In this document: positions 10,684 through 62,533 of the stretch, piece by piece
Position numbering within the stretch: the stretch's first letter is position 1
Layout of the letters: each line of letters opens with the position of its first letter
Assembly (NCBI GenBank): GCA_047967505.1
Contig: CM106538.1
DNA: 64,000 nt
Strand: one strand, 5' to 3'
Origin: Dipteris shenzhenensis
Lineage: Eukaryota
Made by a program: the position numbers and the translations under genes
Notes under the pieces: generated by a model
Seen by the model: only the letters and a program-made list of their open reading frames with translations
Databases searched by the model: none
What the model was told of the DNA's origin: nothing

Positions 10684-11790
10684 GAGATACCATGTCTGCA
10701 GGCTCCTCTGTTTTGTTACATGAGAGAGACACTAATGTGAGACATGTATGAAACTTGTGCTACATCTTGTTTAAGTTTTCCTTTATCGCAATGGAAGTTG
10801 TTTCTTGTTTCAAATTTGCTTCAAACACTTATTTCATTAACTTTGGACTTGTCAATATACAAATTCATTTTAATAGATACTTTTGGACTAGTTTATGGAT
10901 AAAATTTAAGAAAAAACTCACGCTTCAAAACACAGATAAAAACATAAAAACAATGAATTTTTAAGAGTGTTTTGAAGGAAATAAAATCAAAATTATAAAA
11001 ATGTAACAAAGATAAGCTATACCAAAAGATAAGAAACAGTATCAAATAAAACTAAAATTATGAAAATTAATGTAACTTCTTAGATAGACTGGTGCACAAT
11101 CTCGATTCATTTTTGTACTTAAATTTCTATTGAAAAAATCTACTTTATGAAAATATCCTTCCAAAACCAAAAGATGACACTATCCTTTTGAAATAAAGAT
11201 TTTATTTACTTATACTATCATATTGTACTAATAATGCAAAAACTAAGAAATGTAATTCTTACATTGTTCTATATTGTAGAAATCCTAGTATAATTTTTTA
11301 TTTTAAAAGTTTAACTTTTTAATAACTTTAATAAATAAAAATCAAAATATTTGCACCCCCCCTCAATGATAAGTTCAGCGAGGTATGAAAGCTGAGATAA
11401 GACTCAGGAAGAGAATTCAGAGTGGTACAAATTCGATGTCTCTTCTTTTCGAAAGGAACATTTTGTTGTCTGTTGGTTATTATCCAAGCGTGTATAATTT
11501 CTTTTGCGTATGTTGTTTTTTTTCTAAACAATAAACGCTCACATGATAAACATTCATATTTTGGAGTGTCTCAAATTGAGGTAATATATTTTTCTACAAA
11601 CTTTGAAGTTGTTCCAAATGCTTTTGAGTATTTTTGTAATGTCATACATTCATCTATTATGCATGCTCGCTTACGTTTGTGTGTTGTCATTTTCAATTGT
11701 GAGTTTAAGGTTTGTTCTAGTACAAGTATTGTTGTTACCTCATTATGATATTGTAGCTAATTGTGCTGTTAAGTGTCTTGGTTAGTACAA

Positions 11791-14578
11791 TACTTTTCAG
11801 AAGAATTTTGTGAATATCTGAAAGAACAGGGAATTCAAAGGAAGTACTCATGCAGGTCTACCCCTCAGCAGAATGGGGTTGCAGAAAGGAAGAACAGGCA
11901 TATTGCAGAAGTAGGACGGGCGATCCTAAATGAGAAAAACATGCCTGATTATTTTTGGGCTGAAGCAGTAGCAACTGCTGTTTATATTATGAACAGAACC
12001 CCCACTGCAGCTGTCCATGGCATGACGCCTGAAGAAATGTATACAGGCCAAAAACCAGATATTTTTCACTTGAAGGTATTTGGTTGCATAGCTTATGTTC
12101 ATGTTCCTGATGAGAAGAGAACAAAGCTGGATCCAAAGGCAGAAAAATGCATCTTTATTGGATATGCTCTGCACCAGAAAGGGTATCGCTGTTATAACCC
12201 TTCCACCCGCAAAATGCAAGTGAGCAGAGATGTTGTTTTTGATGAAATGAGCAGCTGGTATGCACCAACTGTTATGGTAGGAGATGCAGATGCAGGAAAT
12301 GGGAATGCTGCAATAAATGCAGAGCAGCAATCTCAAGCCTTGAGTGGACCCAGAGAGTCCTCTACTAGTGGATCTAATGCATGGACAGGGAGATTGAGAT
12401 CTAGTGAATCGTCACATGGTAGCCCTGATAGTGTTGTGCAGGTATCACATAAGGGAAAAGAAAAAGTAGACCATGCTCCAGTGTTTGATGTGTCTGCTGG
12501 TAGCTCTCATGTTGATGGAGAGTCAAGCGGCTCTGAAATGAGCCTTGATGAGGAACTTGGGATTCCTTCTGTTGTTACACCTGGTGCAAGGAAAAGCAGG
12601 CATGATTTAAAGACTCCTGCAACTGATCCAGTTGTACGAAGGTCCACTCGTATTAAGTATCCAATTGACAGGCTGAGATATGATGGGTATACAGCACATC
12701 ACTATGCTTATATGGTGAAGGTTCTAGAGGAGCCAGAGCCCACATGTTTTGAGGATGCAGCAGGGCATAAAAATTGGGAAGCAGCTATGGATGAAGAGAT
12801 GGCTGCCTTGGATGCAAACCACACTTGGGATTTGATGCCTTTGCCTCATGATAAGAAGGCTATTGGCTGCAAGTGGGTTTACAAAGTAAAGCACAATGCT
12901 GATGGGTCTGTTAGCAGGTACAAGGCAAGATTGGTTGCCAAAGGTTTTGCGCAGACATATGGAATTGACTATGAGGAAACTTTCAGCCCAGTTGCAAGGA
13001 TGGCAACCGTGAGAGCAGTAATTGCTATGGCTGCTGCAAAGGGATGGTCTTTGCATCAGATGGATGTGAAAAATGCCTTCTTGCATGGTGATTTGTAGGA
13101 AGAGGTTTATATGATGCAGCTAGAAGGTTATGAGGATAATTCACACCCCGATTTTGTATGCAGGTTGCGCAAAGCCTTGTATGGCTTAAAACAGGCGCCG
13201 AGGGCATGGTCAGACAAGATAGGGTAATATCTTGTCACTATTGGATTTCAGATTTCCAATTCAGATTTTTTCACTTTATGTGAAAAGGACAAACAGAGGG
13301 ATTGTGCTTGTAGTCATCTATGTTGATGACTTGATTATTACAGGTGATAGTGATGCAGACATTAATGGAGTGAAGCTGCTGTTGAAGCAAAAATTTGAGA
13401 TGAAGGATTTGGGAGAGCTGTGTTACTTCTTGGGCATTGAGGTTATTAGATCCCCGAGTGGGATATGGCTGTTGCAAAGGCAATACGGTTTGGACATGCT
13501 GTCCAAATATGGGATGACAGGCTGTAAGCCTATCTCTGTTCCATTGGAGCAGAATGTGAAGCTCAATGCAGAGACAGGTGAGCTTCTTGAAGATATTACT
13601 ATGTACAGGCGCATAGTAGGTAGCTTGATTTACATGACTATAACCAGACCAGATTTGAGCTATGCTGTGGGGTTGGTGAGTCAGTTTATGCAGGCACCGA
13701 GGAAGTCACATTTGGATGCGGCTAGGCGCATACTGCGGTATGTGAAGTCCACATTGCATTATGGACTGTTTTATGAAGCTGGGTGTGCATTACAGGTACA
13801 TGGATACACAGATGCTGACTGGGCTGGTAGTGTCTTAGACAGGAGATCTACTAGCGGTTTTATGTTTTCCCTTGGGAGTGGTGCCATCAGTTGGAGCAGC
13901 AAGAAGCAGCCAACAGTTGCCTTGTCGAGCACAGAGGCTGAGTACAGGGGTGCAGCAATGGCTGCATGTGAGGTAGCTTGGTTACGGAAGCTACTTGCAG
14001 ATATGGGACAGTCAATTCATGCAGCAGTTGGCATTCATTGTGACAACATTAGCAGCATCATGCTTGCTAATAACCCAGTTTATCATGCTAGAACGAAGCA
14101 CATTGAGGTGCATTATCACTTTGTGAGAGAGAAGGTTCTAGCTGGTGAGATTGATCTTGTCTATGTCAGCACTGAGGAGCAGGTGGCTGATATTTTTACG
14201 AAGGCATTGGGTACCGAGAAGCTTCGCAGATTTAGGAGCTTGCTTGGTGTACGTGAGATGGATTTGAGCTTGAGGGGGAGTGTTGAGATATCAAGCTCTA
14301 CCCCCGATATATCTCCTGGATGACTATCATTTATGTCACCGCCTATGTTAGTTGTACTCGTGGTGTAGTTAGACTACCACGTATGTTTTTGGTTTGGGTT
14401 CACATATGAACCACGTATTCTAGGGTTTGACATATAGGGTATTTCCCTCTTCTATTGCATTGTTGTTGTGTGCAAAAGTGAAGAAAGGCTTCACCCTCCA
14501 ACCTTGTGTCCTCTCTCTTTTGTGTGTTGTGAAGAAAGCTGAACTTGAGTCTCCTATCTCTCTCCCTTATTCTTTACA
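11791..14578 (+). mobile_element. 5'-truncated Ty1/copia element (integrase C-part, RT, RNase H, PPT, 3' LTR 14281-14578); sibling of 57047-62533
   Basis: Near-identical to 59747-62533. [22 protein letters not shown] and [10 protein letters not shown] motifs; stops at 13096 and ~13225; +1 T frameshift near 13270; PPT TTGAGGGGGAG; LTR TGTTGAG...TTTACA. Confidence 0.95.
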
Positions 14579-16413: not shown

Positions 16414-16670
16414 TGTAACACAAAGTCGTATCACAAAGTTGTAACACAAAGTTGTTACACAAAGTTGTAACACATTCTCTCTCTTCATGTAGAAGTTGTA
16501 ACACAAAGTTGTAACATAAAGTTGTTACACAAAGTTGTAACACAAAGTTGTGTCACAAATTCTCTCTCTTCATGTAGACAAACTCGTAACACAAAGTTGT
16601 TACACAAAGTCGTAACACAAAGTTGTGTCTAGAAGTTGTAACACAAAGTTGTATCACAAAGTTGTATCAC
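16414..16670. repeat. 13-bp tandem repeat (TGTAACACAAAGT), interrupted by TTCTCTCTCTTCATGTAGA
   Basis: Direct inspection. Confidence 0.85.
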
Positions 16671-16779
16671 CTTCTCTTTCTTCATAAGTTCATGTTGGCA
16701 CAGAGTCAACAATCACCTTACGACAACTCTGTCAATTGTCTCCACATATCAAGCATCAGACTATTGCATTTTTGAATCC

Positions 16780-19700
16780 ATGCCAGGAGGGCGCCAAAGG
16801 GGATCTGTTCAGGGCGGGCCCACACTAGAGACAGTAACAGTTCAAGATGGAGTAACACTAGACAATTGCTCAGCCTATGCTGCCCTCACATGTGAACAAA
16901 GTCCCAAGCTCGCAGTGGAGATCAATGGGGTGGAGCTGAAAGATGTTTTCTTGGATGGTGGGGCAGTAGTAAACATCATGCCGAGAGGTACTCTTCAACA
17001 ACTGGGTTTGAAATTGACAACTGACGTACATTTTCAAGTACGCATGGCGGTTCAACGCAAGGTGAAGCCTATGGGGGCTGTCAAAGGTGTTCACATGAAG
17101 ATTGGGGGAGTTACATTCCTGTCCAATTTTATTGTACTTAATATGACGGAGGGTGAGCAGACTTATCCTCTACTTCTTGGTAGACCATGGTTACGCTCAG
17201 CAAAGGCCATTCAAGATTGGTCAAGTGATGAAGTTCGACTGCCTTTGGGATCCACATCCTTAGAAATAGACATGGTTACTGGAAGGGCCCGTCACCGACC
17301 TGTGAAACTTGGGGAAGAGGATTTTGAAGAAGAAGAAGGGGTGGAAGAGGAGCGATGGGCACTTGGGCATTGGCCCCTACAGAAAGAAGAGTTGGCCTAT
17401 GTGGAGGACTCACCCTTCCAAGGTGAAACCTATGTAACAGCAGCACAAGATGATGGTGAGAGCTTGACGTACTTGTTGGAACATGCTGGACCAGATGAGG
17501 AAGAAGCTGTCATCTTGGATTGGATGGGGGCCCTGGGATCCTTAGCCATCAACATGGTGGAGTTGTGTCCAGAAGAGGATCCTGAAGCCCATCTTGGTAC
17601 TTCACGGAATGCGCAAGAGGTGAGCCAGGAAGCCTCTTCACCACCTGGTTTGGCTGATCTCATGTATGAACGGATGCCTTTTGGTCTTCTTAATAATCCC
17701 CACATGTATCAGCGAATGATGTCCGCAAGTACCAAACCAAGTGGTGGGGAGGCCACCAGGGTGACTCAAAGACAAGACCATGAAGCAGCAATGGAAGCAC
17801 ACGACATGGATGCCTCACACCAAGAAAATGACCATGGGGTCACAACAAAGGAGGAAGAGGATGCTATGCAAGAAGATGATGAGCTGGCTGAGCATAATGA
17901 TGGTACTGAAGAGAACACTCATGAATCTATGGGAGAAGAAGATGACCACATAGATCATGGGCTGGCTGAGCACAATGATGGTATTGGAGAAGACACTCAT
18001 GGATCTGCAGAAGAAGAGGATGACCACCCACTTACTGATGTCATTCAAAGGTAGGCGGTGCCGGAAATGACTCTTGGAAGGGTTATTGAATCCATTGTGC
18101 AACCTGACCAACCTGGGAGGGGTCAAGAGACCGGACAACTTGAAGGAGCCGTCCACATTCACACTGGAGTCTGGAACTTCAGACCTTCAAGGCAAGCCCA
18201 CAGCATACAGGGAGAAGAAGATGTCGCGGACCTTGTTCTACTCGACTTATATATGTCAGAAGCTGACCCCCCAACGACACAGGAGGTTCCCGAAACTACA
18301 TACGAGGTGGTTGGACTACCATACAGAGGAATGCTCAAGCAAGCACAAAAAGGAAAGAAGAGAATGGGCCCAAGTGCTGCCTCTACATTTCAACCATTTC
18401 CAGAACACACCCAACTGTCCTATCCGAGCTCTTGGATGGAAGTAGTGGGGAATTTTTCTCTGGATGATTCTCCTGCGCACCCAGCAGTGGGAGTAGAAGA
18501 ACCAAACAACTCCACATCAGGAAGCATACCTCAGGTTGACCATGCCAGGGATTGGAGGTATCTTAACATTGGGACAGAAGACCAACCACGACATCTTAAG
18601 GTTGCCAGTTGGGTCTGGGTACATGACTATCTCCTTGCTGCATTGTCTGATTTTTTTCAAGAGTATGTTGATGTCTTTGCCTGGTCATATAAGGATTTAA
18701 AGGGAGTACCCACTGAGTTCATGGAACATCGCATCGATCTATATCCGGAAGCAGAGCCGGTGATTAGGGGACCATATTGCATGAATCCTAACTATGGCAA
18801 GGCTGTCCACGTTGATATTTAAAAGATGGAGCAAGCAGGGTTGATCTACCCTGTTGACTACTCCGAATGGCTTAGTGGCATCATAGTGGTGCCCAAAAGA
18901 GAGACTGGAAAACTACGAGTTTGTGTCGACTATAGGAGTTTGAATACCGCCACACATAGGGATAGGTTTCCTCTCCCCTTCACTGACAGGGTGCTAGAAA
19001 CTGTAGCTGGTCATGCTCTCTACTCCTTCATGGATGGATACAGTGGGTATAACCAGGTTCGGGTGCGAGAGCAAGATCAGTTAAAGACTACCTTCGTCAC
19101 CCAATGGGGAACTTATGCTTACCGGATGATGCCTTTTGGTCTATGCAATGCACCGGCCACGTTTCAACGTCTTGTCACCAAACTCTTCCAAGAGAACATC
19201 GGAAAGTTCCTTGAGGTATTCTTGGATGACTTCTCTGTGTTCAATGGTAAGAATGCTTCTCACCTCGAACCTGCTATTCAGACTGATCACATGAGTAAGT
19301 TGAGGTGGGTTTTTGATAAGTGAAGAGAAGCTAGGTTGTGCTTGAATCCGGACAAATGTTTCTTCCTCGCCTTGCGAGGGGTTCTCCTTGGCCACATCGT
19401 CTCGGCTGAGGGAATGACCACGGACCCAGCAAAGGTGGAAGTGTTATTGACCTTGCCTATTCCTCGCACACCCAGAGAAGTCAAGTCTTTTTTGGGACAT
19501 GTGGGTTATTATAGAAGATTCATCAGGTCCTATGCTGACATAGCGGTGGCGTTGACGGAACTCCTTCGGCAGGAGCAGTCCTTCAACTAGTCGGCACCTC
19601 AACAACTGGCATTTGACAACCTCAAGGATCGTCTAATAAAGGCACCCATCTTGTGGCAACCTCAATGGGATGTCATTTTTCATGTGCATGTAGATGCAAG

Positions 19701-20603
19701 TGGGCTGGCGATTGGGGCGATATTGGCCCAACCAGATGAAGAGCACAAACTCAACCTACCTATGTACTTCGCAAGTAGACAACTCAATGGAGCAGAAAGA
19801 AACTATAGCACCACTGAACACGAGGGCTTGGGCATGGTCTATGCCATGACAAAGTACCGGCACTATCTTTTGGGTAGTAAGTTTATCATCATTACTGATC
19901 ATCAAGCTCTCAAGTACTTACTGAACAAACCAACGCTTGGGGGGAGAGTGAGCAGGTGGATTCTTCTATTTCAAGAGTTTGACTTTGACATCCTAGTGTT
20001 AGCAGGCCGATTGCATCAACCAGCAGACCACTTGTCAAGAATCTCTTCAAGTGAAGCAGCCATAGGAGTTGATGATGACCTTCCAATGCGGGCCTCTTCC
20101 GTGTCAGTGCCACAGTACCAAAAGATGACTGCCTGTTTGCTGTGGATTGCTTTCCCCCATGGTATGCAAACATTGTAAACTTGTTGTCTACAGGGGAGTT
20201 CCCCAAAGGGTTAACTCTAGCACAAAAGCGGAGGCAGATTGTTCAGGCTGCTCCTTTCAAACTAATCGCGGGTCAGCTGTATGAGTTGGGGAAGGACCAC
20301 ATTTTGAGGAGGTGTGTGCTCCCTCATGAAACACAAGCCATTCTTCAGGAGGCTCACTCAGGAATGGGGGGAGGTCATATGGCACCAGAGGCCACTGCTA
20401 GAAAGATAATGCGCTCTGGGTTGTGGTGGTCAAAGCTATTCCAAGACTGCTATGCTTATGTGCGCCGCTGTGACTCATGTCAAAGAGGGGGGCCGAAGCC
20501 TATCTGACGGGAGTACCTTCCCCTTCAGCCATCCATCCGTGTACCACCCTTCTATAGATGGGGATTGGATTTTGTCAGACCCATCTCTCCTGCAACTCGA
20601 AGA
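16780..20603 (+). pseudogene. Ty3/gypsy (non-chromovirus-like) pol pseudogene: protease, acidic linker, RT, RNase H, integrase N-terminus
   Basis: LDGGA/LLGRPWL; RVCVDYR, DGYSGYNQ, MPFGLCNAPATFQ, FLDDF; DASG..NYSTTE..TDHQAL; HHCC; WGLDFV. Several stops and frameshifts. Confidence 0.93.
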
Positions 20604-40386: not shown

Positions 40387-40810
40387 GCTCTGATACCAAC
40401 GTAGCTAAGCCAGCTGACAGCCTGCTAACTAAGCCCTAATTCCACAGCCGACTAGCCTAGACTAGCAAAATAGAAGTAGAGGGATAGAACAACAAGTAAT
40501 CATAAGAATCCATGTTTATAATCATCAAAAAGTACCTGGATACTGTGAAGAGATCCATGGCCTATGAGGGGATGCACAAGCAAGAGTCTAGGATGTAGAT
40601 CCTAGTCTCGGAGAAGACAACTTTGAGCAAAACAGGGCTCAGCTGTAATTGGATGTTCATTAGAGTGCATTCAAAGCTATTAGTACAATGTAGACCAAGG
40701 CCCCCTTTTATAGGAATAGACTTGGGTACAAATTACCACCACTATTCTTATGGGATGGTTGCCCTAGGATGCCACGTGGCAACATTAGGTCATCGTACTA
40801 AAAGTACTAC
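40387..40810 (-). mobile_element. tRNA-iMet PBS and probable LTR remnant on the minus strand (right boundary uncertain)
   Basis: GCTCTGATACCA at 40387-40398; a minus-strand TATAAAAGGGGG box near 40700-40712. Confidence 0.5.
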
Positions 40811-46200: not shown

Positions 46201-46981
46201 TGGAGACATCAAGGAAAGAGAGTCATGCTTTATTGGAAGGATGGGTGGAAATCAAAGTACTAGCTAGGTGGCTTTACAAGAATGAGCATGCTCCATCAAG
46301 GAATAGCCCCCTCCTTTTATAGCCAAGAGAGGGGGTCTCTCCCAATAGATGCATCCTCCCACATGCATGGTGTGTGTGGAAGAGTGTCCCATGTGGGCTA
46401 GGCAGTTACGCACTCTCAATTGTGTGCGACAATCCTTTGCCTCATTTTCCCACATACATCAACCCCCATATCCCAAGTCTAAGATACTCCCTTGGCCTCT
46501 TCCCAATTTTATAATACGTTCAAACATCTAGGAGGACAAGTGGAGGGTTGGCACAAGGAATCTTGCCACCTCATCCTACTTTCCCATTATTTAACTTGCA
46601 TTCTTGGACTTTCTACACCCCCCCACATGGGCCTATCCTACATGGAGGGAATAATCCAATATAATATCCATCTCCACCTATTTTATATTACTTCTCCCAT
46701 GGTCCTTGGGCCATATCTCACTAAATGCAGGCGTGGGGACTACCTAGGTGGAGGGGTGGTGTATGGAGGACCCATGCCACCTTATCATTTTATATTATTA
46801 CTACCATGGATTATGTACAACACACCTCATGGGTCCTCTTACATGGAAGGGTGGCACATGGTCATGCCCTGCCACCTCATCCTTGGGCCTTATGCACACC
46901 ATATTTTATTATACTATTGCCACACATACAAGCACACACACATATTTATGCCTTTTACTTTCGTCAAATTTATCCATAACA
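43260..46981 (-). mobile_element. Putative ~3.7-kb 3' LTR of the minus-strand gypsy element
   Basis: Minus-strand PPT AGGGGGGAAC at 46982-46991 is directly followed by TGTTATGG. An 8-bp terminal inverted repeat TGTTATGG (43260) / CCATAACA (46974-46981) bounds it. TATA box GGCTATAAAAGGAGG on the minus strand near 46310-46324. Confidence 0.6.
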
Positions 46982-49900
46982 GTTCCCCCCTAGGTAGGGA
47001 ATGCATAGCATTTCCATGCTGGGACCATCACGCACAGAGAAGGGCTTGAGACAATGCTTGTTGATCACCTTCTTGCCATATGGCTCATGCAGCTCCTGAA
47101 CTTGTACAGACCCATTGCTACATTCCTTGATGACTTTGTATGGACCAGTCCACAGTGGCAGGAACTTCTTATCCATTTGGTGGTCCAATCTGTTATCAAA
47201 GCATAGCACAACATCCCCCTCAACAAAGTGTCTTTCCCATCCCTTGCGAATTTTAGCATTCAAGCAGGCCTTTTGTCGATTCTTTTGGATCTCTGTTTGA
47301 TGTAGTGCAAGGCATCAAGTTTCATCTAACTTCTCAAGTTGTACCAACCTGGCCTCTACATGTTCATCTTCTATCATCCTCTGTTCTCGTGCCAATCTTA
47401 AGGCCGGAATCTCTATCTCTAGTGGTAAAACTGCCTCAGTACTGTACACCAACTCAAAAGGAGTGTGACCTATAGATGTTTTATGAGTGATGTTGTAAGC
47501 CCACACGGCTTCAGTGACCTTCTAATCCCACTGGATCCTATTCTCTGTGGCCATTTTTCCCATGGATTTATAAAGGAGGCCATTGGTCCGCTCCGTTTGT
47601 CCCATGGATGCTGGATGATAATGCTAGAAGTGCGGTGATCAATACCCATGCGATCCATGAGCAACTCCACTGCTTCATTTAAGAATGGACTCCCATGGTT
47701 AGATACTATTTCCATGGGTGTCCCAAACCTTGTGCAGATACGTTCAAATATGAAATTTGAAATTGCCTTACCATTTGTAGCGGGGAGGGCGATAGCTTCA
47801 GCCCACTTAGTGACATATTGAGTGGCTACCAAAAGATACTTCTTTTTGTAGGCAGTCATGGGTAGGGGCCCAACAAAATCTATTCCCCACTTCTGAAACG
47901 GATGGATGGACATCACTGGGTGATGTTGCCCGGGACACAAATCCTTCCTACCAAAGAATTGGCATGGTTCACAAGTTTTGCAATACATAGTGACATCCTT
48001 GAACAAGGTCGACCAATAGTACCTAGCATGTAAAATCTTCTTAGTTGTATAGTCACCGGCATAGTGGCCTCCACAAAATCCATCATGATAATGCTTCAAT
48101 ACCTTAGGTACTTCATTTGCATCAATGGCCCGTCTTAGTATCCCATCCAGGCCTTGACGGTATAACACCCCATCAAAGAGAATGTAGTGCCTACTATCTC
48201 TATGGATTTTCTTTCTCTCATAGCTAGTACTTTTTGGAGGAAAGGAGAAAGCGGTCAAAAACCTGTAGATACCACCATACTATGGATCCCCAACTTCTAT
48301 GGCCGCTACAAGGGTTACATCGAGGCACTCCTCTAAATCAATCAAAGCATTCTTCAAGTTGGAACAACCCCCTTTTACAATTTTGAAAGAAAAATCATAT
48401 TCTTGTAAAACTGCCAACCATTTGGCCAACCGACCCATGGGATTTGGTGATTGAAGAACCTGCTTTGCAAGACCATTGCTACAGATTATAATGAAGGACT
48501 TTCCAGCAACATAATGCTTAAATTTCTCAATGCAGAACACCAAAGACAAAGCATGCTTGTCAGCCTCAGAGTAGCATCGTTCAGTTTCGAGCAATTGTTG
48601 AGAAGCAAATCGAACGAGATACATGAACCGATCCTCCCCTTGCTGGAGAAGAATACCTGCCAGAGTGTGCTCACCAAACCTAGGATTGATATAGAAAGTC
48701 TTTGACCACCAATTAGGATTGCGTAGAGTGGGTTCTGAAGCCAGAGCACTCTTGATTTGTACAAACCCATGATCACAATCCTCATCCCAAGAGAAATCAA
48801 CTCCATCTTTTAATAGCATAGTCATGGGTCGTGTCAAAGCACAATATTGAATAATGAAGCAATGATAGTATCCTACTAGATTGAAAAATGAGCATACCTG
48901 ACGTTTGGTTGTTGGCGGGGAGAGCTTGAGGATAGCTTCTACCTTCTCGGGGTCAAGCTTGACGCCCTTAAATGAGACAATATGTCCTAGTAACCTCCCT
49001 TGAGTGGCTCCAATGGTACATTTATCAGGGTTGAGGCTGCCATTCGCATCATTGACCCTTTGGAAGGCCAACCTAACCTTGATGACGTGCTCCTTACATG
49101 CCAAGAATATATAGAAATCATCTAAAAACACCTCCAAGAAAACCCCCAAATAAGGAGAAAACACCATCTACATAAATCTTTGAAAGGTAGCAGGAGCATT
49201 GGTGAGGCGAAATGGCATTACTTTGAATGCAAATGTCCCCCAAGGTGTGGCAAATGTGGTTTTAAGCACATCCTCCTCAGCAATTCTGATTTGATAAAAC
49301 TCGGAGTAACCATCACAGAAAGTATACATCTCATGACCACTTACCTTCTCAAGAATGAGGTCTTGAAAGGGAAGAGGATGATGGTCCCTCTTGGTGGTTG
49401 CATTGAGTTTCTTATAGTCGATGCAGACCAACCACTTGCTGTTTTTCTTTGCGGTGACTACCACTGGTGAAACCCATTCAGTATTGTGAACCGGAACAAC
49501 AAACCCAGCTTCTACAAGTTTCTGCAACTCTGAGCGCAAAGCATCGGTCTAATCTCCAATACTTCTGAGCCACAGACTTCACATCAGGTTTCAACTCTAT
49601 CTTGTGCTCTATGGTAGTCACATGGCGAAGGTGGCGGTAGCTAGTTGCGAAGAGGTCAGGAAAATATTTGAACATTTCTAGGAACTCGTCTTTCTCACTT
49701 GGAGTGAGGTCTGGGGAAAGCATAGATTCAAGCTGTTGAGGACTAGCTATTACCTTTTCTGTAGGTGGTGGGGTCGGAGACACCCCCATCATGTAAACTT
49801 CCTCCTCTGAGAACTCCTTCCCCCCGTTTGATTCTTCCATTGATTCAGACACCGAGGATGAGAGAGTTTTCTAAAAACCCCATAATATCCCATACACAAA

Positions 49901-51261
49901 TAACTCTCAACCCATACCTAGGTATTTATCATTCATACACATGGTATTTACAATGATCCATTCCACTCATCCTCTCAACCCCATACATATCTTAGAAAAT
50001 GGAAATAAGTGGGAGCCATTAGACTACCAAGTGATACACTCTTATTAAACATAGAAAATAGAAACAGCAATGCCAAATAAAATCTATCAATTTTTGGCAT
50101 CACAATGCCATTCTCCACAATCCATGTGATGAATGGCACTGGTGTCATTCTCCACATAATCATATGGTGGTGTCCATAAGGGCACTGATGCCAATCTTCA
50201 ACCATGATCTATGACAACCTTGGAACCTAGAGAATGACATATCACTGTCTTGCTCCTCTTCTTCTTCTGGTTTAGTGGCACCTGGTTGCACTGGGATCTT
50301 CTCCTTAGAAGCACCAAAAGACATGTGTCCTGTCTTCCAATAGCTGACTACATCACTCTTTCTCAACCATAGTCTCCCGAGTATGGCTAGGTAACTCCTG
50401 CCTGTATCTTCGATGTCCACTACATAGAAATTGACGGTGGTGGTCAACCCATTGACAGTGATGGGCAAATCCTCAATGACTCCCAAGGTGGCGAGTCATC
50501 GACCATCTGCTACCTTGATTCGAGTGGAGGAATGCCTTGTGTATTTCAAATTCAATTTCTTCATGATTTGGGGCACCATGATATTACATGCAGACACTTT
50601 TGACAGGGCAATTTACCTTTCCCTTTTTCTTGCTCCTCCTTGTTGAGAGCCCTTGCTACAACTCACGTCTCACCTTAGGGCTTAATGCTATTAGTTGAGG
50701 GAGCATGATGCTCAAAGACCAATGAGCAAGGTCCTAAACGATCGAATAGTCTTCTTGCCCCGAGCCGATGGGAAAATCCGAGGGTGACCACTTACTCCTG
50801 CGAGATCTTTTAGTCTTCTCTATTGGTGGGTCTGCCATCTCAGCATCTGAGGCCTCTGAGAAGGACACCTTCTTCTTGGGGTGGCCTGGTCCATGGTTTG
50901 GAGAGGGGTTTGAGGTGGTACGACTTCTTTTCCTGAGGTCAAGGATCTCTGCGTCAAAATCCTCGGTGCCTGATTTACTTAGAAGATTCACCCTTGGAAT
51001 ATTGGGACATTCCGTGCGATAATGACCCTTCTGGTGGCACTTGTAGCACACAACATTGGCACGTTCTCTTAGAGGGTGATTGGCTTGATTTCTGATGCCC
51101 ACCATCTCAAGCCGAAGATCATTCAGGGCCTTGGCTAGGTCATTGACCTTGTGGTTGCGACTGTGCTTAGGGGCGTGGGTGCATTGATGGAAGGGAGATT
51201 GAGGCAGCTCCTTTGCCTTCGTAACCTCGCCACCCATTCTTGATGTACGTGACCCTGGCAT
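46982..51261 (-). pseudogene. Degenerate Ty3/gypsy (non-chromovirus-like) gag-pol: gag zinc knuckle, protease, RT, RNase H, integrase with GPY/F
   Basis: CYKCHQKGHYRTEC; ILGRLWL; VCIDYKKLN, MPFRLTNAPATFQ, FLDDF; HHCC, WGIDFVGP, WTGPY. The integrase frame runs into the PPT/LTR; no chromodomain seen. Confidence 0.92.
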
Positions 51262-51848
51262 CTATAGCAAGACCCTCCCACTTTGTATCACATGAGTTTA
51301 TGTCTCGATCTATTTGACCGAGGCATCATCAACCCTCCATCGCTAAGTGGTACAAACACTGGTCTATAGAGTCTACTGTGAAAACATCTGGGGATCGGCC
51401 ATGCAAGCCCTCCCTCCATGCTTTGCCATTGTCCTCATCAAATTCTGTACACTGCTTTCACCATTTTGGAAAGCTGTCTCAATGATGTCCTGATCGACAT
51501 TCATTAAGAAGTGTACATTCTCGTTTTTCAGCACCTTCCTCTAAAACTTAGTGAGACTAGGTTGGTGACACTTCCTCTTCTCACCTGCGTGAGCCATCTC
51601 ATATGCAGTAAGCTGCAACATAGAATTCAAAAAAGAATTCAGTGCCAAGTGCAATAAGAAACTCATCAAGCCATAACAATTAACAATGCAAGCAGTCTAA
51701 GAGATTACCTAGATATAACCTCTCAACTCAAGCTCACATCATGTAAGAGACTACAGAAAATCAAAACATAAAAAATTCTTGTAACCTGCACAAAAAATGA
51801 CCTAGGTATATCCTAATCGTGGACTTCACCATCTAACACTAGGCTTCA

Positions 51849-52600
51849 ACTACAACACACAACTATCAAGGGACAATTGAGTGCTAGACTAAGTGTCTAA
51901 GAGCACATCGTATGATATCTAACTTAGACTACAACACAACTATCAAGGGATAGTTGAGTGCCAGACTAACTGTCTAAGAGCACATCGCATGATATCTAAC
52001 TTAGGTTGCAAAACACAACTATCAAGGGATAGTTGAGTGCCAGACTAAGTGTCTTAGAGCATGTCGCATGATATCTAACTTAGACTGCAACACACAACTA
52101 TCAAGGGATAGTTGAGTGCCAGACTAAGTGCTTGAAAACATATCTAAACTGAGACTATAACACACAACTCTCAAGGGAGACATGAGTGCTAGAATAAGCA
52201 TCTATGAAAACATCACTAAGCTTGGACTGCAACACACAACTCTCTTAAGAGAGATGAGTGTCAACCCAAGAGTTCCTACAAACAAAATTTTTTATACAAA
52301 TTGAGATTGCAACACACAACTCTCTTAAGAGAGATGAGTGCTAGCCTCAGGTAAAAAACAATTATTTATATTATAATCAAAATTGCAAGACATGACAAAA
52401 ACAGATTGCAACACACAACTCTCACAAGAGAGATGAGTGTTAGCCTACTGTCTACACACTTAAATACAATACAAAATAAATATTAAACAATTAAAAAAGA
52501 CTGCAACACACAACTCTCCTAAGAGAGATGAGTGCCAGTCCTAAACAAAAAAAAACAAAAGAAACATTAATTACTGTAACGAAAGACTGCAACACAAACA
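51849..52600. repeat. Array of ~9-10 ~38-bp hairpin repeats (ACTGCAACACACAACT(A/C)TC-N4-GA(T/G)AG(T/A)TGAGTGCYAG) with ~30-60-bp spacers
   Basis: Repeat starts near 51849, 51928, 52005, 52084, 52154, 52226, 52306, 52405, 52500 and a partial copy at 52586. Confidence 0.9.
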
Positions 52601-52728
52601 AGGGTGCAATAAGGTACCTATGATGAGAGCTAGTAGGTATGGAAGCAAGCAGGAGGTAGCAGGTAGGCAAGCAGGAGGTGGCAGGGCTGGAAAGCAAGTG
52701 GTTGAGGTGGCAAGGAAGACAGGTGGAT

Positions 52729-52870
52729 GTATTCGTACGAATACCAAAACTGGCAGTGGCTGCAAGTTTATACTATGTATATTCATATGAATAAACTGAT
52801 CTATTCATATGAATAACTTTATTCGTATGAATAGTTGTTTATTCATACGAATAGGTTATTTATACAAATA
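52729..52870. repeat. Cluster of 14-bp palindromes TATTCRTAYGAATA
   Basis: Copies at 52730, 52780, 52802, 52820, 52840 and a degenerate one at 52857. Confidence 0.85.
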
Positions 52871-54398
52871 AAATATCAAAAAACGTTTGAAACATTTTAA
52901 AGCGCCAAAATCGCGTATTTGGGCGTTTTATTTGAATAAAAAAAAAACGCCCGAATTAATGCAACTTAGGTAGAGATTGATATGGCTAGAAATTCTACGA
53001 TGCCTCACTGCACATAGGCAATGCACAATACCTCCTTTCACATTATTAAGTGGAGTTGGTGCAAAATAGCTCGTAATAGATAATTTTTACTAAGGCAAGT
53101 TTAGTCTTGGATGCTTGAAAAGATAGTTGGATCTATGTTTGAGTAAGCAAGACACTCAAGATAGCATTCAAAGTAGAAAATATTGCACACGTACAACTTA
53201 GCCTCTGATTTGTGCTAACTAAGCATTTTCTAAGAGGTAGGAATAGCTCGAGAGCTTCTTAAACTATGTAAACAGTTATGTAAGTAGAAGGACTCCGATT
53301 CATGACGGGAGTACCTGTAGCAAACTTATCTTTTCCTCTTTTTTTAAAGGGAGATATCAGTAAGGTCGAGGATTGATCTTAAAAAGATACGGATTTTTAA
53401 AGGGATGAATACTATTGAGACTTCATAAGACAAATCTATTCTATGGCTCTGGTGTATATGTTGACAAAATTATGTTTGTTGTGATCACAGGGACTAACAT
53501 TGGTAGATATTTATAATAGTATTTTTTATTGTAAGTCATTTTAATGGTAGAATGGAGATATGGTGGCAGTAGGTAGCCACATCCCTTATGATCTCTAAGG
53601 CCTCTGCTCAAGAGAAAGGAATATTTTCTGAATGACCCTCAATAACTTTAAGATCACAAAGGAAGGATCCTCGGTGCTTTATTGAAAATCATCACTGTCA
53701 GTGTCTTTGTTCCAAATAGTTGAGGCTGACAAGGATAACAACTGTGGCTTGGCTATGAAGCCTGTAGTCCCACAATGCATTGTGTTCATGTCCTGACATG
53801 TTGTGCTTGTGGATGGATGTAGGTGAGTCCAGCTACTTACCTTGACTTTTTGGTGAAAAGGGAAAGACAGTGAGATGATATATACGGGTGGATCTGACCA
53901 TTTGAAAATTGTCCTTAGTCCGAGAGCACCTACTAATGAGGAACCCCTTGGAGTACCCCAATGGCAACTCGACACATTTTGATGCCCATTTGGAGGTCCC
54001 ATGAAAGCAACATCTATCCAGCTACCAAGCTGTCCACTATGACCTGGTTTCTACACAAGAAAAACTATATTAATAGAGGATTTTGATAAATCCATACATT
54101 GGATAGACAAAGAGATCTATGGAATAGACAATATCTGAATTCTGCTTTATATTTATGTTTGATATAAATATATTTCCATAATTTTGACTTTACAAGATTC
54201 TTGGTCATGTCTGTCCAATGGAATTGTATATAAGCATCATCCCTAAGTGTGGGATACACTACTCTAATTGCATATGATGCAGGATGAAATACAATAGGAG
54301 CATGGGAATGGCAATGCATGCACTATAAAGGGCATTCTTTACATGAAAACCAAGGATGTGTAGTAGGGAAGAATTAGAGTATACTGTTTTAGTAGGTA

Positions 54399-57046: not shown

Positions 57047-60000
57047 TGTTGAGATATCAAGCTCTACCCCCGATATATCTCCTGGATGACTATCATTTAT
57101 GTCACCGCCTATGTTAGTTGTACTCGTGGTGTAGTTAGACTACCACGTATGTTTTTGGTTTGGGTTCACATATGAACCACGTATTCTAGGTTTTGACATA
57201 TAGGGTATTTCCCTCTTCTATTGTATTGTTGTTGTGTGCAAAAGTAAAGAAAGGCTTCACCCTCCAACCTTGTGTCCTCTCTCTTTTGTGTGTTGTGAAG
57301 AAAGCTGAACTTGAGTCTCCTATCTCTCTCCCTTATTCTTTACATGGTATCAGAGCCTTGTTCGTGGTAAGGAGCTCAAGAAAGCAAGCCAAGTTCGTGG
57401 TGTCCTGGTAAGAGGACCAGTGTTGCTTTCCTATTTCGAGTTTGGGAGCAAATCTCTGCAGGTAGCACAGCCAGAAGTGCAGGAGTGCACTGTTTGAGAT
57501 TGAGAGGCCCTTCGCGGTGTGACGAGAGCGCAGTATATGCTACGGGAAAGGGCAAAGCCCTTGGTGACTATTTTTTTGATTTGAGGCCGTTTCGGGGCCC
57601 GTTTTGAAGGCGCAAGTTCTTCGCAGGCACTCAGAAAAAGGCCCTGTTTTTCACTGTGCGACCACTGCGCGGCTAGTCTCGGTGGAAAGGTGCCACAGAA
57701 ATTGCATCATATGCCTGTGTGTAGAGATATTGGGAGTTGCAGATTCATGCCTGTTGCCTGTTGATGCAAAATCGTCACTAGGAAGTGACTGTGTGGTGAA
57801 ATACCACTTTCGTCAGTGTTGCGGATCTGCCCCTGTGAGGCTGTTTGCAAAAGTTTTGCTATTTGCCCTTGTGAGGCATTTGCTGTGTTTACAGGTTGCT
57901 GTTGCAATTCGTGATTTGTAAAATGTCTGAGAATCTGTCTACCATTGTCAGTGAGAAGCTTGACAAGAACAACTTCCAAGCATGGAAGTTCAGGATGACA
58001 AACTTCCTTATGGGAAAGCGAGTTTGGGAGTACATCAGTGGTGAAACTGCAGAACCAGTGTTGGGTGCTGCTCCCACTCCTGCTGAATTGAAGGCCTTTA
58101 AAGAATGGCATGAAAAAGCCAGAAAATGCTTGTATTGGCTGTCTGTTAGCATTTCAGATTCTATGATTGTGCATATACAGGATGTAGAGACACCTAAGGA
58201 GGCATGGGATACATTGGTGAAGCTGTATAGCACAAATACCAAAGCACGAAAGATGCAGCTAAAGCAGGAGTTGCACAATGTGCAAAGGAAAAATATGAAT
58301 ATAAATGAGTATTCCTTGAAGGTGAAAGGCCTTGCAGATTCTCTTGCCTCCATTGGAGCACCTGTTGATGATGAGGACTTAGTGTCTATGACCTTGAATG
58401 GTCTTGGGAAAGATTATGCACAGTTTCGGACATCCATTGGAGTCCGTGAAACATTTCCTGATTTTCAGGAACTTATTGCTCTCTTGCTGAGTGAAGAGCA
58501 AAGGAATGGTGGTTCAGCCACCTCAACTTCTCAAGAGACTACTTTCTACTCGAATACAGGTAGAGGCAGGGGTAGAGGAAGAGGCCGTTTTGGTGGCCGT
58601 GCAGGAAATCAGAACCAACAGCAACAACAGGAAAACCAGTCCTATGGAGGAGGACGTGGTAGTTCTAGAGGCAGGGGGAGCCAAAGAGGCCGTGGTTCAT
58701 GGCAAAGGAACCAGCAAGTAAATAGCAGCACAGAATGCTATTATTGTGGAAAGCCTGAACACAAGGAGAATACATGCTATAAAAAGTAGAATGACATCAA
58801 AAGTGGGAAGTTGCAGCAAAGCAACTATGCATCATCAAGTGGGCATGGTGACGACAGAAATGAGCACCTTTTTGTGATGCAGCATATGGTTAACTCCATG
58901 TCAGGAGATGCTGCAGCTTGCAATGATGTTTGGTATGTTGATTCAGGTGCCTCTAACCACATGACCAGTCATGGTGAGTGGTTTCATGATGTTAGAAATT
59001 TGGATAAGCCAGGTTATGTTGAAACAAGTGATGATACTGCGCACCCAATTACGCAAGTTGTTAAAGTGCCATTGGCTATGCAGGATGGCAAAACGAAGTA
59101 CTTGGCAGATGTACTTCATGTTCCAAAAATCACTAAGAACCTGGTTTCAGTTGGCCAGATGGTTGAGCAAGGTCTGCAGGTTATATTTAATCCTGATGGA
59201 TGCTTTGTTGAGGACTTGAAAAATAAGTGCCGCTTGGTTGCGAAAGGCAACAAAAATGGCAGAATGTTCACCTTGGATGTTGATATGCCTGAGGTGAAAG
59301 CTGCTATGTTTGCGCATGGGAGAGGTGTCATTGCAGATATTGAGATATGGCACAAGCGCATTGGGCATGTGAATATACAAAGGCTGAAATCTATGCAAAC
59401 GAAAAACATTGTTGCAGGTTTGCCTAAATTCAGAGTTGAGGGAATGCAAAAGGTATGTGAAGCATGCCAAATGGGTAAGCAGGCTAGACATGCATTTCCC
59501 AAAAATGCTAAGGTGAGCAGAAGACCTTTGGAAGTGATCCATTCAGATGTTTGGACAACCAAAGCTGCTTCTATTGGTGGATGCCATTATTATGTGACGT
59601 TTATTGATGACTACACTAGGAAGGTGTGGATTTATTTTATGAAGCACAAAAGTGAAGTGTTCAGCCATTTCAAGGCTTTTAAGGCCATGGTTGAAAAAGA
59701 GAAAGGTGTGCATATTAAAGTGCTAAGATCTGATGGAGGGGGAGAGTACTTTTCAGAAGAATTTTGTGAATATCTGAAAGAACAGGGAATTCAAAGGAAG
59801 TACTCATGCAGGTCTACTCCTCAGTAGAATGGGGTTGCAGAAAGGAAGAAAAGACATATTGCAGAAGTAGGACGGGCGATCCTAAATGAGAAAAACATGC
59901 CTGATTATTTTTGGGCTGAAGCAGTAGCAACTGCTGTTTATATTATGAACAGAACCCCCACTGCAGCTGTCCATGGCATGACGCCTGAAGAAATGTATAC

Positions 60001-62533
60001 AGGCCAAAAACCAGATATTTCTCACTTGAAGGTATTTGGTTGCATAGCTTATGTTCATGTTCCTGATGAGAAGAGAACAAAGCTGGATCCAAAGGAAGAA
60101 AAATGCATCTTTATTGGATATGCTCTGCACCAGAAAGGGTATCGCTGTTATAACCCTTCCACCCGCAAAATGCAAGTGAGCAGAGATGTTGTTTTTGATG
60201 AAATGAGCAGCTGGTATGCACCAACTGTTATGGTACGAGATGCAGATGCAGGAAATGGGAATGCTGCAATAAATGCAGAGCAGCAATCTCAAGCCTTGAG
60301 TGGACCCAGAGAGTCCTCTACTAGTGGATCTAATGCATGGACAGGGAGATTGAGATCTAGTGAATCGTCACATGGTAGCCCTGATAGTGTTGTGCAGGTA
60401 TCACATAAGGGAAAAGAAAAAGTAGACCATGCTCCAGTGTTTGATGTGTCTGCTGGTAGCTCTCATGTTGATGGAGAGTCAAGCGGCTCTGAAATGAGCC
60501 TTGATGAGGAACTTGGGATTCCTTCTGTTGTTACACCTGGTGCAAGGAAAAGCAGGCATGATTTAAAGACTCCTGCAACTGATCCAGTTGTACGGAGGTC
60601 CACTCGTATTAAGTATCCAGTTGACAGGCTGAGATATGATGGGTATACAGCACATCACTATGCTTATATGGTCAAGGTTCTAGAGGAGCCAGAGCCCACA
60701 TGTTTTGAGGATGCAGCAGGGAATAAAAATTGGGAAGCAGCTATGGATGAAGAGATGGCTGCCTTGGATGCAAACCACACTTGGGATTTGATGCCTTTGC
60801 CTCATGATAAGAAGGCTATTGGCTGCAAGTGGGTTTACAAAGTAAAACACAATGCTGATGGGTCTGTTAGCAAGTACAAGGCAAGATTGGTTGCCAAAGG
60901 TTTTGCGCAGACATATGGAATTGACTATGAGGAAACTTTCAGCCCAGTTGCAAGGATGACAACCGTGAGAGCAGTAATTGCTATGGCTACTGCAAAGGGA
61001 TGGTCTTTGCATCAGATGGATGTGAAAAATGCCTTCTTGCATGGTGATTTGCAAGAAGAGGTTTATATGATGCAGCCAGAAGGTTATGAGGATAATTCAC
61101 ACCCCGATTTTGTATGCAGGTTGCGCAAAGCCTTGTATGGCTTAAAACAGGCGCCGAGGGCATGGTCAAACAAGATAGGGAAATATCTTGTCACTATTGG
61201 ATTTCATATTTCCAATTCAGATTTTTCACTTTATGTGAAAAGGACAAACAGAGGGATTGTGCTTATAGTCATCTATGTTGATGACTTGATTATTACAGGT
61301 GATAGTGATGCAGACATTAATGAAGTGAAGCTGCTGTTGAAGCAGAAATTTGAGATGAAGGATTTGGGAGAGCTGTGTTACTTCTTGGGCATTGAGGTTA
61401 TTAGATCCCCGAGTGGGATATGGCTATTGCAAAGGCAATACGGTTTGGACATGCTGTCCAAATATGGGATGACAGGCTGTAAGCCTATCTCTGTTCCATT
61501 GGAGCAGAATGTGAAGCTCAATGCAGAGACAGGTGAGCTTCTTGATGATATTACTATGTACAGGCGCATAGTAGGTAGCTTGATTTACATGACTATAACC
61601 AGACCAGATTTGAGCTATGCTGTGGGGCTGGTGAGTCAGTTTATGCAGGCACCGAGGAAGCCACATTTGGATGCGGCTAGGCGCATACTGCGGTATGTGA
61701 AGTCCACATTGCATTATGGACTATTTTATGAAGCTGGGTGTGCATTATAGGTACATGGATACACAGATGCTGACTGGGCTGGTAGTGTCTCAGACAAGAG
61801 ATCTACTAGTGGTTTTATGTTTTCCCTTGGGAGTGGTGCCATCAGTTGGAGCAGCAAGAAGCAGCCAACAGTTGCCTTGTCGAGCACAGAGGCTGAGTAC
61901 AGGGGTGCAGCAATGGCTGCATGTGAGGTAGCTTGGTTACGGAAGCTACTTGCAGATATGGGACAGACAATTCATGCAGCAGTTGTCATTCATTGTGACA
62001 ACATTAGCAGCATCATGCTTGCTAATAACCCAGTTTATCATGCTAGAACAAAGCACATTGAGGTGCATTATCACTTTGTGAGAGAGAAGGTTCTAGCTGG
62101 TGAGATTGATCTTGTCTATGTCAGCACTGAGGAGCAGGTGGCTGATATTTTTACAAAGGCATTGGGTACCGAGAAGCTTCGCAGATTTAGGAGCTTGCTT
62201 GGTGTACGTGAGATGGATTTGAGCTTGAGGGGGAGTGTTGAGATATCAAGCTCTACCCCCGATATATCTCCTGGATGACTATCATTTATGTCACCGCCTA
62301 TGTTAGTTGTACTCGTGGTGTAGTTAGACTACCACGTATGTTTTTGGTTTGGGTTCACATATGAACCACGTATTCTAGGTTTTGACATATAGGGTATTTC
62401 CCTCTTCTATTGTATTGTTGTTGTGTGCAAAAGTGAAGAAAGGCTTCACCCTCCAACCTTGTGTCCTCTCTCTTTTGTGTGTTGTGAAGAAAGCTGAACT
62501 TGAGTCTCCTATCTCTCTCCCTTATTCTTTACA
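57047..62533 (+). mobile_element. Structurally complete, recently inserted Ty1/copia LTR retrotransposon (5487 bp)
   Basis: 298-bp LTRs at 57047-57344 and 62236-62533 (one difference seen, 57246 A vs G); TSD CTCCT at 57042-57046 and 62534-62538; PBS TGGTATCAGAGC at 57345-57356; PPT TTGAGGGGGAG. Confidence 0.98.
57923..62278 (+). pseudogene. copia gag-pol polyprotein (gag, zinc knuckle, protease, integrase, RT, RNase H), single frame with three TAG stops
   Basis: MSENLSTIVSEKLDKNNFQAWKF; CYYCGKPEHKENTC; WYVDSGASNHM; WHKRIGH..CEAC; RSDGGGEY; YVDD; TKHIEV. TAG at 58787, 59825 and 61748. Confidence 0.95.

Follow-up and report, generated by a model that had tools for sequence, protein, structure and literature searches.

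Our analysis of a 64,000-nucleotide stretch of Dipteris shenzhenensis DNA (contig CM106538.1 of assembly GCA_047967505.1; the window in what follows) revealed an array of short tandem repeats, each with a hairpin-forming core, that lies immediately upstream of the gag remnant of a minus-strand retrotransposon. The reading that we favour, with a confidence that is evenly poised, is that a decayed Ty3/gypsy copy of plant type has the array as its leader, made of tandem sub-repeats, and that the core of the array is a multimerised cis-element, acting either as an RNA stem-loop or as a DNA site. The approximately 1 kb of untranslated sequence running up to the gag ATG would then be made up of ~43-nt cores and variable A/T-rich spacers. 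It would have grown by tandem duplication of whole units, units 1-3 being recent products; in the older units the cores would have stayed alike as the spacers drifted until they were unrelated. Since the older cores are alike while their spacers are unrelated, selection in the active lineage probably kept the core, as a cis-acting module in multiple copies. We infer the membership of the array in the gypsy element, the selection on its core and any function from the sequence. A first-pass annotation of the same DNA had described the array as a CRISPR-like series of covarying hairpins in a retrotransposon leader.

Read on the plus strand, nine well-kept hairpin units (U1-U9) occupy 51847-52540, each consisting of a ~43-nt core and a 27-56-nt spacer. 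The core is built of an imperfect 12-bp palindrome with a 4-nt loop and asymmetric flanks, and in the alignment the conserved block of ~43 nt runs AGACTGCAAC, 12-nt arm, 4-nt loop, 12-nt arm, CYAGMC. A degenerate hairpin pattern, allowing at most three mismatches, was scanned over both strands of the window with 100 shuffles as control. It matched the plus strand at nine sites (51856, 51933, 52012, 52091, 52161, 52233, 52313, 52412 and 52507), seven of which matched on the minus strand too because they are palindromic, giving 16 matches in total where 0.00 were expected, and at this threshold there was no match elsewhere in the window. The coordinates and the count of nine full units in the first-pass annotation were thus right. 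Tandem Repeats Finder reported a period of 79 at 51849-52130 (3.6 copies, 89% matches) and a period of 70 at 52071-52244, and a repeat finder gave eight 58-nt copies in register with spacings of 156, 79, 70, 72, 80, 99 and 95 nt. When a covariance model built from the nine units (R1) was run over the whole window, it retrieved these units at 59-70 bits, plus two weak matches in the same orientation at the array ends, the next-best match after these 11 units having an E-value of only 4.2. The array is accordingly a head-to-tail series of short monomers with a period of 70-99 nt, variable in both length and sequence, with nine good and two degenerate units.

The nine cores are listed here on the minus strand, which is the sense strand of the gypsy copy, with their R1 scores. 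Unit 1 (51847-51889, 60 bits) carries CTATC/GACAA; owing to two transitions in one of its arms, it has A.C and C.A mismatches on the plus strand, which are G.U pairs on the sense strand. Unit 2 (51926-51966, 59.4 bits) has a 2-nt deletion in its 5' flank, and is followed by unit 3 (52003-52045, 63.2 bits) and by unit 4 (52082-52124, 69.9 bits), which is the best palindrome with 11 of 12 pairs. Unit 5 (52152-52194, 61.8 bits) combines a CTCTC/GAGAC stem with an AAGG loop and bridges the two unit subfamilies. The loop is TTAA in unit 6 (52224-52266, 61.7 bits) and unit 7 (52304-52346, 66.8 bits), ACAA in unit 8 (52403-52445, 65.7 bits) and CTAA in unit 9 (52498-52540, 66.6 bits). Unit 9 is the most stable, with an outer 5-bp GACTG/CAGTC stem and -20.4 kcal/mol on the sense strand. 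The claim that the loop varies freely therefore holds only among U6-U9 and goes too far for U1-U5, all of which have AAGG. At the distal end, the tenth repeat noted earlier is present; it is a degenerate full unit rather than a partial one (unit 10, 52584-52635, minus strand; 18 bits, E 0.005), with both flanks retained and the inner stem gone, and its fold is not better than that of shuffles (z -0.66).

By its sequence content the window can be described as transposon-rich, plant-type DNA, and what adjoins the array reads as a decayed Ty3/gypsy copy on the minus strand. Its gag remnant spans 50734-51597, with a probable start codon at 51595-51597 and a CCHC zinc knuckle in the open reading frame (ORF) 50734-51261 (zf-CCHC in Pfam, E 1.9e-4). 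Read-through translation showed seven in-frame stops and at least one frameshift between the gag start and the CCHC ORF. The start is probably at 51597 because the methionine of a 55-aa protein (P0115), which aligns to 51597-51436 with 55% identity and E 1.6e-12, coincides with a methionine in the window, so that both start with M. The search of protein representatives for gag otherwise gave mostly zinc-knuckle matches, and only P0115 was informative about the start. No gag capsid domain was detected upstream of the CCHC ORF, either by Pfam on five short ORFs or by a profile of nine plant gag N-termini searched against the six frames, which gave a best i-Evalue of 0.85. The distance of about 600 bp between array and gag that had been given earlier holds for the CCHC ORF but not for the probable gag start, since unit 1 is 250 nt upstream of 51597.

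The array in fact comes closer to gag than unit 1. A diverged unit, termed unit 0, was found on the minus strand at 51610-51650 (R1 18.5 bits; E 0.003 when the full window is searched, 2.4e-5 locally), and its end is 13 nt upstream of the probable gag ATG. On the sense strand this unit retains the flanks, UGGCAC...UGUUGCAG, and has a different inner hairpin, GAAUUC-U6-GAAUUC, which folds at -11.7 kcal/mol (z -3.18). Unit 0 was not counted as covariation, because GAATTC is its own reverse complement and a small direct duplication is equally possible. The interval between unit 0 and unit 1 (51651-51846, minus strand) is A-rich, that is U-rich in the sense RNA, and contains only faint unit remnants, e.g. 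UGUAGUCU near 51749-51756 and a weak R1 match at 51748-51786 (4.3 bits). Extension of the array into this interval by plain alignment was rejected, the local alignments being not better than the best shuffles. The AT skew of the interval is the same as that of the array. Along the plus strand the AT skew changes sign at 51599/51600, from -0.23 to +0.39, and remains positive as far as 52699; the flip at the gag ATG therefore marks one compositional domain that extends from the ATG across the whole array, and no LTR-like break (LTR, long terminal repeat) is present between gag and array. That the array lies upstream of a minus-strand gypsy gag, as first described, is thus borne out, and with unit 0 it reaches up to it.

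The contrast between cores and spacers is among the observations that stood up to checking. Overall, the cores are 70-93% identical between units. Those of U6-U9 are 86-93% identical, while the spacers of the same units (37-56 nt) are no more similar than shuffled sequences, with z between -1.4 and 1.6. In U1-U3, the spacers are 89-94% identical, and these three units are plain recent duplications, spacers included. The pattern reported previously, namely near-identical gag-proximal spacers, unrelated distal spacers and conserved cores, was hence reproduced in all its parts. The spacers are 64-83% A+T overall and 76-83% in U6-U9, and A makes up 41-63% of the plus strand in U4-U9. Variable columns are concentrated outside the stem (5 of 24 in the stem, 4 of 4 in the loop and 12 of 15 in the flank; Fisher p 5e-5, to be read with the units not being independent).

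Much of the variation that does exist within the cores is of a type expected from cytosine methylation. At four CWG positions of the cores, C>T or G>A changes occupy 11 of 36 cells, against ~1% of the CHH cytosines in the stem. Most differences in cores and flanks are therefore due to in-situ CHG decay, and the cores must have been more uniform still at insertion. The core-spacer contrast predates insertion and is thus a property of the active lineage. In the read-through of the gag frame (50734-51864, minus strand), 12 of 15 stop codons are TAG, an excess which fits CAG-to-TAG decay at methylated CHG sites.

The hairpins are thermodynamically credible, and more so on the gypsy sense strand. 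Eight of the nine units are more stable on the minus strand, with a mean of -14.9 kcal/mol as compared to -10.8 kcal/mol, and z values of the single units range from -2.1 to -5.1 on the sense and from +0.1 to -4.5 on the antisense strand, while the array folded as a whole gives z of -8.45 and -5.77 for the sense and the other strand, respectively. This bias is modest in size and stems from G.U pairs in a strand that is rich in G and U. With regard to the arms, the palindrome is real, whereas the full 12-bp stem originally described is not formed: on the plus strand the standard pairs out of 12 amount to nine in U1 and U5, ten in U2, U3 and U6-U9 and 11 in U4. Over 15 pairs, 85% of the cells are paired, as against 24-43% when the partners are slid by one to three columns; the comparison covers nine related sequences of a single copy. 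Units 1-4 have A-U at pair 16/31 where units 5-9 have A.A. At pair 19/28, A.C in unit 1 and A-U in units 2-4 give way to C-G in units 5-9, so that CTATC/GATAG in U2-U4 stands against CTCTC/GAGAG in U5-U9 with both partners switched, exactly as noted before. By this switch a GATA-like inner motif becomes GAGA-like and the symmetry is retained. Pair 6/39 in the outer helix is G-C in four units, A-U in two and G-U in two. As a case of covariation this pair was rejected, because the partners are located in CWG sites (CTG in columns 4-6 and CAG in columns 39-41) and two hypermutable CHG sites yield the same pattern, which makes it a mutational artefact.

The remainder of the gypsy copy was traced downstream of gag on the same strand. 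A pol remnant at 47027-50609 was recognised by tblastn with plant gypsy polyproteins, by Pfam and by read-through translation, and includes a protease (about 50609-50295) and a reverse transcriptase (RT)/RNase H/integrase region (49545-47027). Two in-frame stops interrupt the 641 codons of the RT-RNase H-integrase stretch 49545-47623, and the frame changes between the pol segments. The named relatives of the integrase are land-plant polyproteins with 28-41% identity, and unnamed proteins from metagenomes and assemblies reach 46%; for two ORFs after the integrase, nothing was found in Pfam or the ESM Atlas. Further on, the probable 3' LTR (46312-46991, minus strand) begins with a purine run AGGGGGGAA at 46983-46991 that is followed by TG at 46980-46981. 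It comprises about four degenerate sub-repeats of 95-116 nt (46500-46925), each with a GGTGGCA...TGCCACC-like inverted motif, and after these a TATA-like CTATAAAAGG box at about 46312-46322. Together, the purine run, the TG, the sub-repeats and the box probably represent a 3' LTR with its U3 included, as judged from sequence features. The hairpin motif is absent from this probable LTR both by pattern and by R1; the array was therefore rejected as LTR sequence and is regarded as internal sequence.

Several observations weigh against the array being the leader of this element and against selection on its core. All results come from a single truncated copy of the array. A second LTR copy, i.e. 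a 5' LTR, was not found in the window by ungapped repeats, BLAST or sensitive BLAST, nor was any initiator-tRNA (iMet)-type primer-binding site (PBS) found on the minus strand between 51598 and 57046. The motif searched for is one that we take to be of the initiator-tRNA type, and it has a perfect match directly after the 5' LTR of a copia element at 57345; tRNA genes were not found. With neither 5' LTR nor PBS found in the window, the copy must be truncated or interrupted on its upstream side, and the membership of the array rests on adjacency. The earlier placement of the array in a 5' leader is thus supported on the gag side only, where adjacency, unit 0 and base composition agree. Moreover, the young part of the array (U1-U3) is uninformative about constraint, as its spacers are as conserved as its cores. 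Part of the low variability of the stems reflects lower mutability and not selection, because both strands of the stems are devoid of CG and CHG cytosines. The palindrome folds on both strands, and it looks alike to a dimeric DNA-binding protein.

The pairing data also count on this side. Pair 13/34 is A.A in all nine units and thus never paired. Only 2 of 15 pairs show a two-sided change, whereas the shuffled expectation is 2.1 and 437 of 500 shuffles have at least as many as observed. The covariation score, 0.135, was reached by 10 of 500 shuffles, and kinship alone can yield such a score. At minimum, seven changes are required in the stem columns, of which only two make a compensated pair, and the subfamily split that compensates 19/28 breaks 16/31 on the same branch. 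The chance of a compensated pair among three random substitutions was estimated at 0.016-0.059, so that the 19/28 transversion pair is nominally interesting yet weak, being picked post hoc. Such a switch would be equally expected if the DNA were bound by a dimer, or from template switching in a quasipalindrome, by which a change can be transferred from one arm to the other without selection. Among the nine loops (AAGG five times, TTAA twice, ACAA and CTAA once each) only the two TTAA loops are self-complementary in the way a kissing loop would be. Overall, the covariation evidence from nine units of one copy is weak and not significant, and the description of the hairpins as covarying could not be upheld: two-sided changes are at the shuffled level, 6/39 is CHG decay and 19/28 is a single event.

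If the core is functional, the mechanism that we prefer, as possible rather than likely, is a stem-loop formed by each core in the genomic RNA of the sense strand; the multimer of hairpins would be a leader signal for binding of Gag/nucleocapsid, in other words for packaging or dimerisation of the genome. We rate protein-binding sites arrayed in the DNA almost as highly. The slight tilt towards the RNA stem-loop is due to the folding bias of the sense strand, the symmetry that is kept through the change from GATA to GAGA and the adjacency to gag. It is tempting to speculate further that the whole 5' leader might be about a dozen copies of one selected stem-loop, making a high-avidity platform for the element's own CCHC nucleocapsid, and that the UGUUGCAG ends might let the spliced, translated RNA shed this platform; we consider this distinctly unlikely. 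If this is true, plant LTR retrotransposons would have their first defined packaging element, one whose repeat-spacer architecture is unusual. To our knowledge, it is largely unknown what marks the genomic RNA of plant LTR retrotransposons for packaging, and also why their untranslated regions (UTRs) so often hold tandem repeats. A hairpin core kept amid free spacers would be a natural experiment on both questions, and the array could be a handle to track or silence a retrotransposon family. The present value of the array is that of a lead for genome-wide checking, as it is one decayed copy of a kind of repeat that has already been described.

The sequence distal to the array is of relevance for some of the alternatives. 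Directly next to it on the minus strand is a tract at 52640-52725 that is pyrimidine-rich in the sense direction (GC skew +0.54 on the plus strand) and has 22-nt sub-repeats, and this is followed at 52730-52853 by five 14-bp palindromes TATTCRTAYGAATA at intervals of 18-50 nt (5 matches, 0.02 expected). The palindrome occurs in four variants, all of them CpG-deamination derivatives of TATTCGTACGAATA, and the cluster shows that methylation decay can mimic covariation. Rfam gave weak microRNA (miRNA)-like matches at the cluster, at 27-32 bits as compared to gathering thresholds of 83-100. About 70 nt past the cluster, a hairpin with G+C-ended arms, GGGCG-T10-ATTCAAATAAAA-CGCCC, was observed on the minus strand at 52921-52952.

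One alternative, somewhat unlikely in our estimate, is that the cores act as double-stranded DNA, as about ten sites for a dimeric or multi-finger host protein that form an enhancer, silencer or insulator within the transcribed leader, much as the 12 Su(Hw) sites of Drosophila gypsy do in its 5' UTR. The high A+T content of the U6-U9 spacers (76-83%) is in line with this, and the joint switch of both half-sites at 19/28 is what a dimer site would require. The sub-repeats of the 3' LTR and the five adjoining 14-bp palindromes likewise suggest that short motifs have been multimerised at the DNA level. A conserved block of 43 nt is, however, long for a single site, and its flanks are asymmetric; the half-sites differ at 13/34 in all units and at 16/31 in five of nine, and the protein would have to tolerate both GATA-like and GAGA-like inner motifs. 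Nor does a DNA site predict the folding advantage of one strand, and none of the 14 matches to the Su(Hw) consensus in the window falls in the array.

An alternative of similar weight, which we would not expect to be correct but take seriously, is that the array is a neutral hypervariable repeat of the kind known from Tat/Ogre 3' UTRs, produced by RT template switching or unequal recombination, with a hairpin that has no function. The likeness of the cores would then be due to the lack of methylation-prone sites, to a need for homology in template switching and to self-correction of palindromes. Hypervariable UTR tandem repeats are common in plant gypsy elements and thought to be born during replication (PMC7004042). 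The plain recent duplication of U1-U3, with 89-94% identical spacers, is as expected for such a repeat, as are the stems free of CG and CHG sites, the outer-helix covariation that is fully explained by CHG decay, and an overall covariation that does not exceed shuffles. What a neutral origin does not account for is the state of the U6-U9 spacers: a few percent of in-situ decay cannot render them unrelated with the cores still 86-93% alike, so that the core-spacer contrast must predate insertion. Template switching copies spacers together with cores, and unique spacers are not produced by that alone. In addition, unit 0 retains flanks and a hairpin despite a different stem sequence.

The array could also be foreign to the gypsy copy, as flanking DNA or a piece of another element that was joined by a rearrangement which removed the 5' LTR, and this we regard as rather improbable. 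The candidate would be the 3' UTR repeats of a plus-strand element, with the tract at 52640-52725 as polypurine tract (PPT) and the TG at 52726 as the start of its LTR. The absence of a 5' LTR and PBS implies a breakpoint somewhere upstream of gag, and on the plus strand the array is indeed followed by a purine-rich tract (GC skew +0.54), an order which corresponds to the position of Tat/Ogre repeats relative to the PPT (PMC7004042). Set against this are unit 0, which has the orientation of the other units and lies 13 nt from the gag ATG, and the compositional domain that starts exactly at the gag start. Furthermore, neither a plus-strand coding remnant upstream of the array nor a second copy of the putative plus-strand LTR (52726 onward) in the window was seen, and the purine tract of 90 nt is much longer than a PPT.

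Quite improbable, judging by the sequence, is a leader intron with alternative 3' splice sites, each a U-rich spacer followed by UGUUGCAG, with unit 0 before the gag ATG as the last acceptor; the first-pass annotation had listed tandem acceptors as an option, and they may coexist with a packaging role if hairpins stay only in unspliced RNA. Seven of ten units end in YAG on the sense strand, where the spacers are U-rich, unit 0 places its UGUUGCAG 13 nt before the ATG, and a donor-like AG|GUACCU can be read in unit 10. The AG has, however, been lost through CHG-type transitions in three of ten units, an acceptor needs much less sequence than the conserved block provides, and for tandem acceptors in a retrotransposon leader we found and recall no precedent. 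That the hairpins are precursors of small RNAs, whether miRNA-like or hairpin small interfering RNA, is very improbable in spite of a weak Rfam likeness to plant MIRNA families (52230-52343, minus strand) and the ability of neighbouring units to pair into a longer duplex, as the 25 bits of that match are far under the gathering thresholds of 69 and 113 bits, the stems of single units (12-17 bp) are shorter than a 21-nt duplex, and the Rfam search gave nothing at gathering level.

The window contains further mobile elements and repeats. A second, unrelated gypsy remnant at 16642-20178 on the plus strand has protease, RT and RNase H and is without a hairpin array; its first ORF gave a sub-threshold match to Methyltransf_23 (E 3.9e-4, 20.6 bits, cut-off 27). 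A young copia element at 57047-62533 has 298-bp LTRs that differ at about 1 of 298 positions, the initiator-tRNA-type PBS at 57345, and Gag, integrase and RT domains across four consecutive ORFs in the same frame that are parted by stops; a second, partial copia copy at 11773-14578, 48 kb away, is 98-99% identical to it. The named relatives of the copia RT are land-plant polyproteins (32-55% identity), and unnamed metagenome and assembly proteins reach 65%. LINE-like (long interspersed element) ORFs with RT and endonuclease were also observed. Additional perfect matches to the initiator-tRNA-type PBS at 40387-40398 (minus), 36923 (plus) and 1161 (minus) suggest that there may be more LTR elements in the window. 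A large satellite from 27184 to about 34000 is built on interleaved periods of 21, 46, 67 and 88 nt, holds over 130 copies of 300 nt that overlap one another, and shows an extreme strand bias (GC skew -0.57, AT skew -0.31). In a Pfam scan of 34 ORFs of the window, the families at or above cut-off were RVT_1, RVT_2, rve, RNase H, zf-CCHC, gag, Exo_endo_phos and zf-RVT.

The array can be compared with several known systems. With CRISPR it shares the repeat-spacer look and a partly palindromic repeat of CRISPR-like length. Unlike CRISPR, it is set in a eukaryotic transposon, with only retroelement domains among the 34 scanned ORFs at cut-off; the U1-U3 spacers are duplicates of each other, spacer lengths range over 27-56 nt and the repeats differ by subfamily. 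The hairpin pattern had 0 matches in prokaryote genomes. In metagenomes it matched one locus, an isolated site that combines CTCTC and GATAG arms and is not part of an array, where a rough estimate gives about one match by chance. Viral contigs gave 0 matches both by the pattern and by the pol protein, and a 13-nt core string searched in paper text matched only unrelated primer lists. CRISPR was therefore rejected on the grounds that there is no cas-type context among the scanned ORFs, that no searched prokaryote genome contains the motif, that the named relatives are plant polyproteins and that the spacers are neither all unique nor near-constant in length. This agrees with the earlier statement that the array is not a true CRISPR, the 34 scanned ORFs having only retrotransposon and LINE domains at the Pfam cut-off.

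The insulator of Drosophila gypsy consists of a repeated core, with 12 sites for Su(Hw), and lies in the 5' UTR of a gypsy-type element, the position proposed here for the array; the array shares with the Su(Hw) cluster a conserved core, about a dozen copies and variable AT-rich spacers (64-83% A+T). The array is, in contrast, plant-type with a 43-nt palindromic core, as compared to an insect system with a non-palindromic site of 12-20 nt. The Su(Hw) consensus YRYTGCATAYYY, with one mismatch allowed, had 14 matches in the window, which is the chance level, and none in 51600-52650. The packaging (Psi) and dimerisation signals of retroviral leaders resemble the array in being stem-loops of the sense RNA just upstream of gag, and the gypsy copy next to the array encodes a CCHC knuckle. 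Psi and the dimerisation initiation site are sets of different hairpins, whereas the array has about ten copies of one hairpin, and, unlike these leader signals, it is without a PBS to anchor its position.

The closest resemblance is to the sub-repeats in the UTRs of plant LTR retrotransposons. Tandem repeats in the non-coding regions of these elements are described generally in PMC6317226 and PMC7004042, and UTR tandem repeats next to gag are reported for plant gypsy elements, Athila among them, in 10.1101/2021.07.15.452536. In Tat/Ogre elements the 3' UTRs are hypervariable tandem-repeat regions thought to be born in replication (PMC7004042). In these three sources, the repeats are, like those of the array, head-to-tail monomers of tens of nucleotides in a non-coding internal region of Ty3/gypsy elements, with variable monomer length and sequence and with young duplications of whole units. 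Hypervariability between copies defines this class, and the array is known here from one truncated copy. In the portions consulted of the literature on such UTR repeats, we met no description of a leader with a hairpin core and unique spacers, although one may exist elsewhere in it. A sharply conserved palindromic core beside an unrelated spacer distinguishes the array from the UTR sub-repeats as they are described in those portions. Taken together, the array would belong to a known class of retrotransposon repeat regions, in which its hairpin core appears mildly unusual and is possibly functional.

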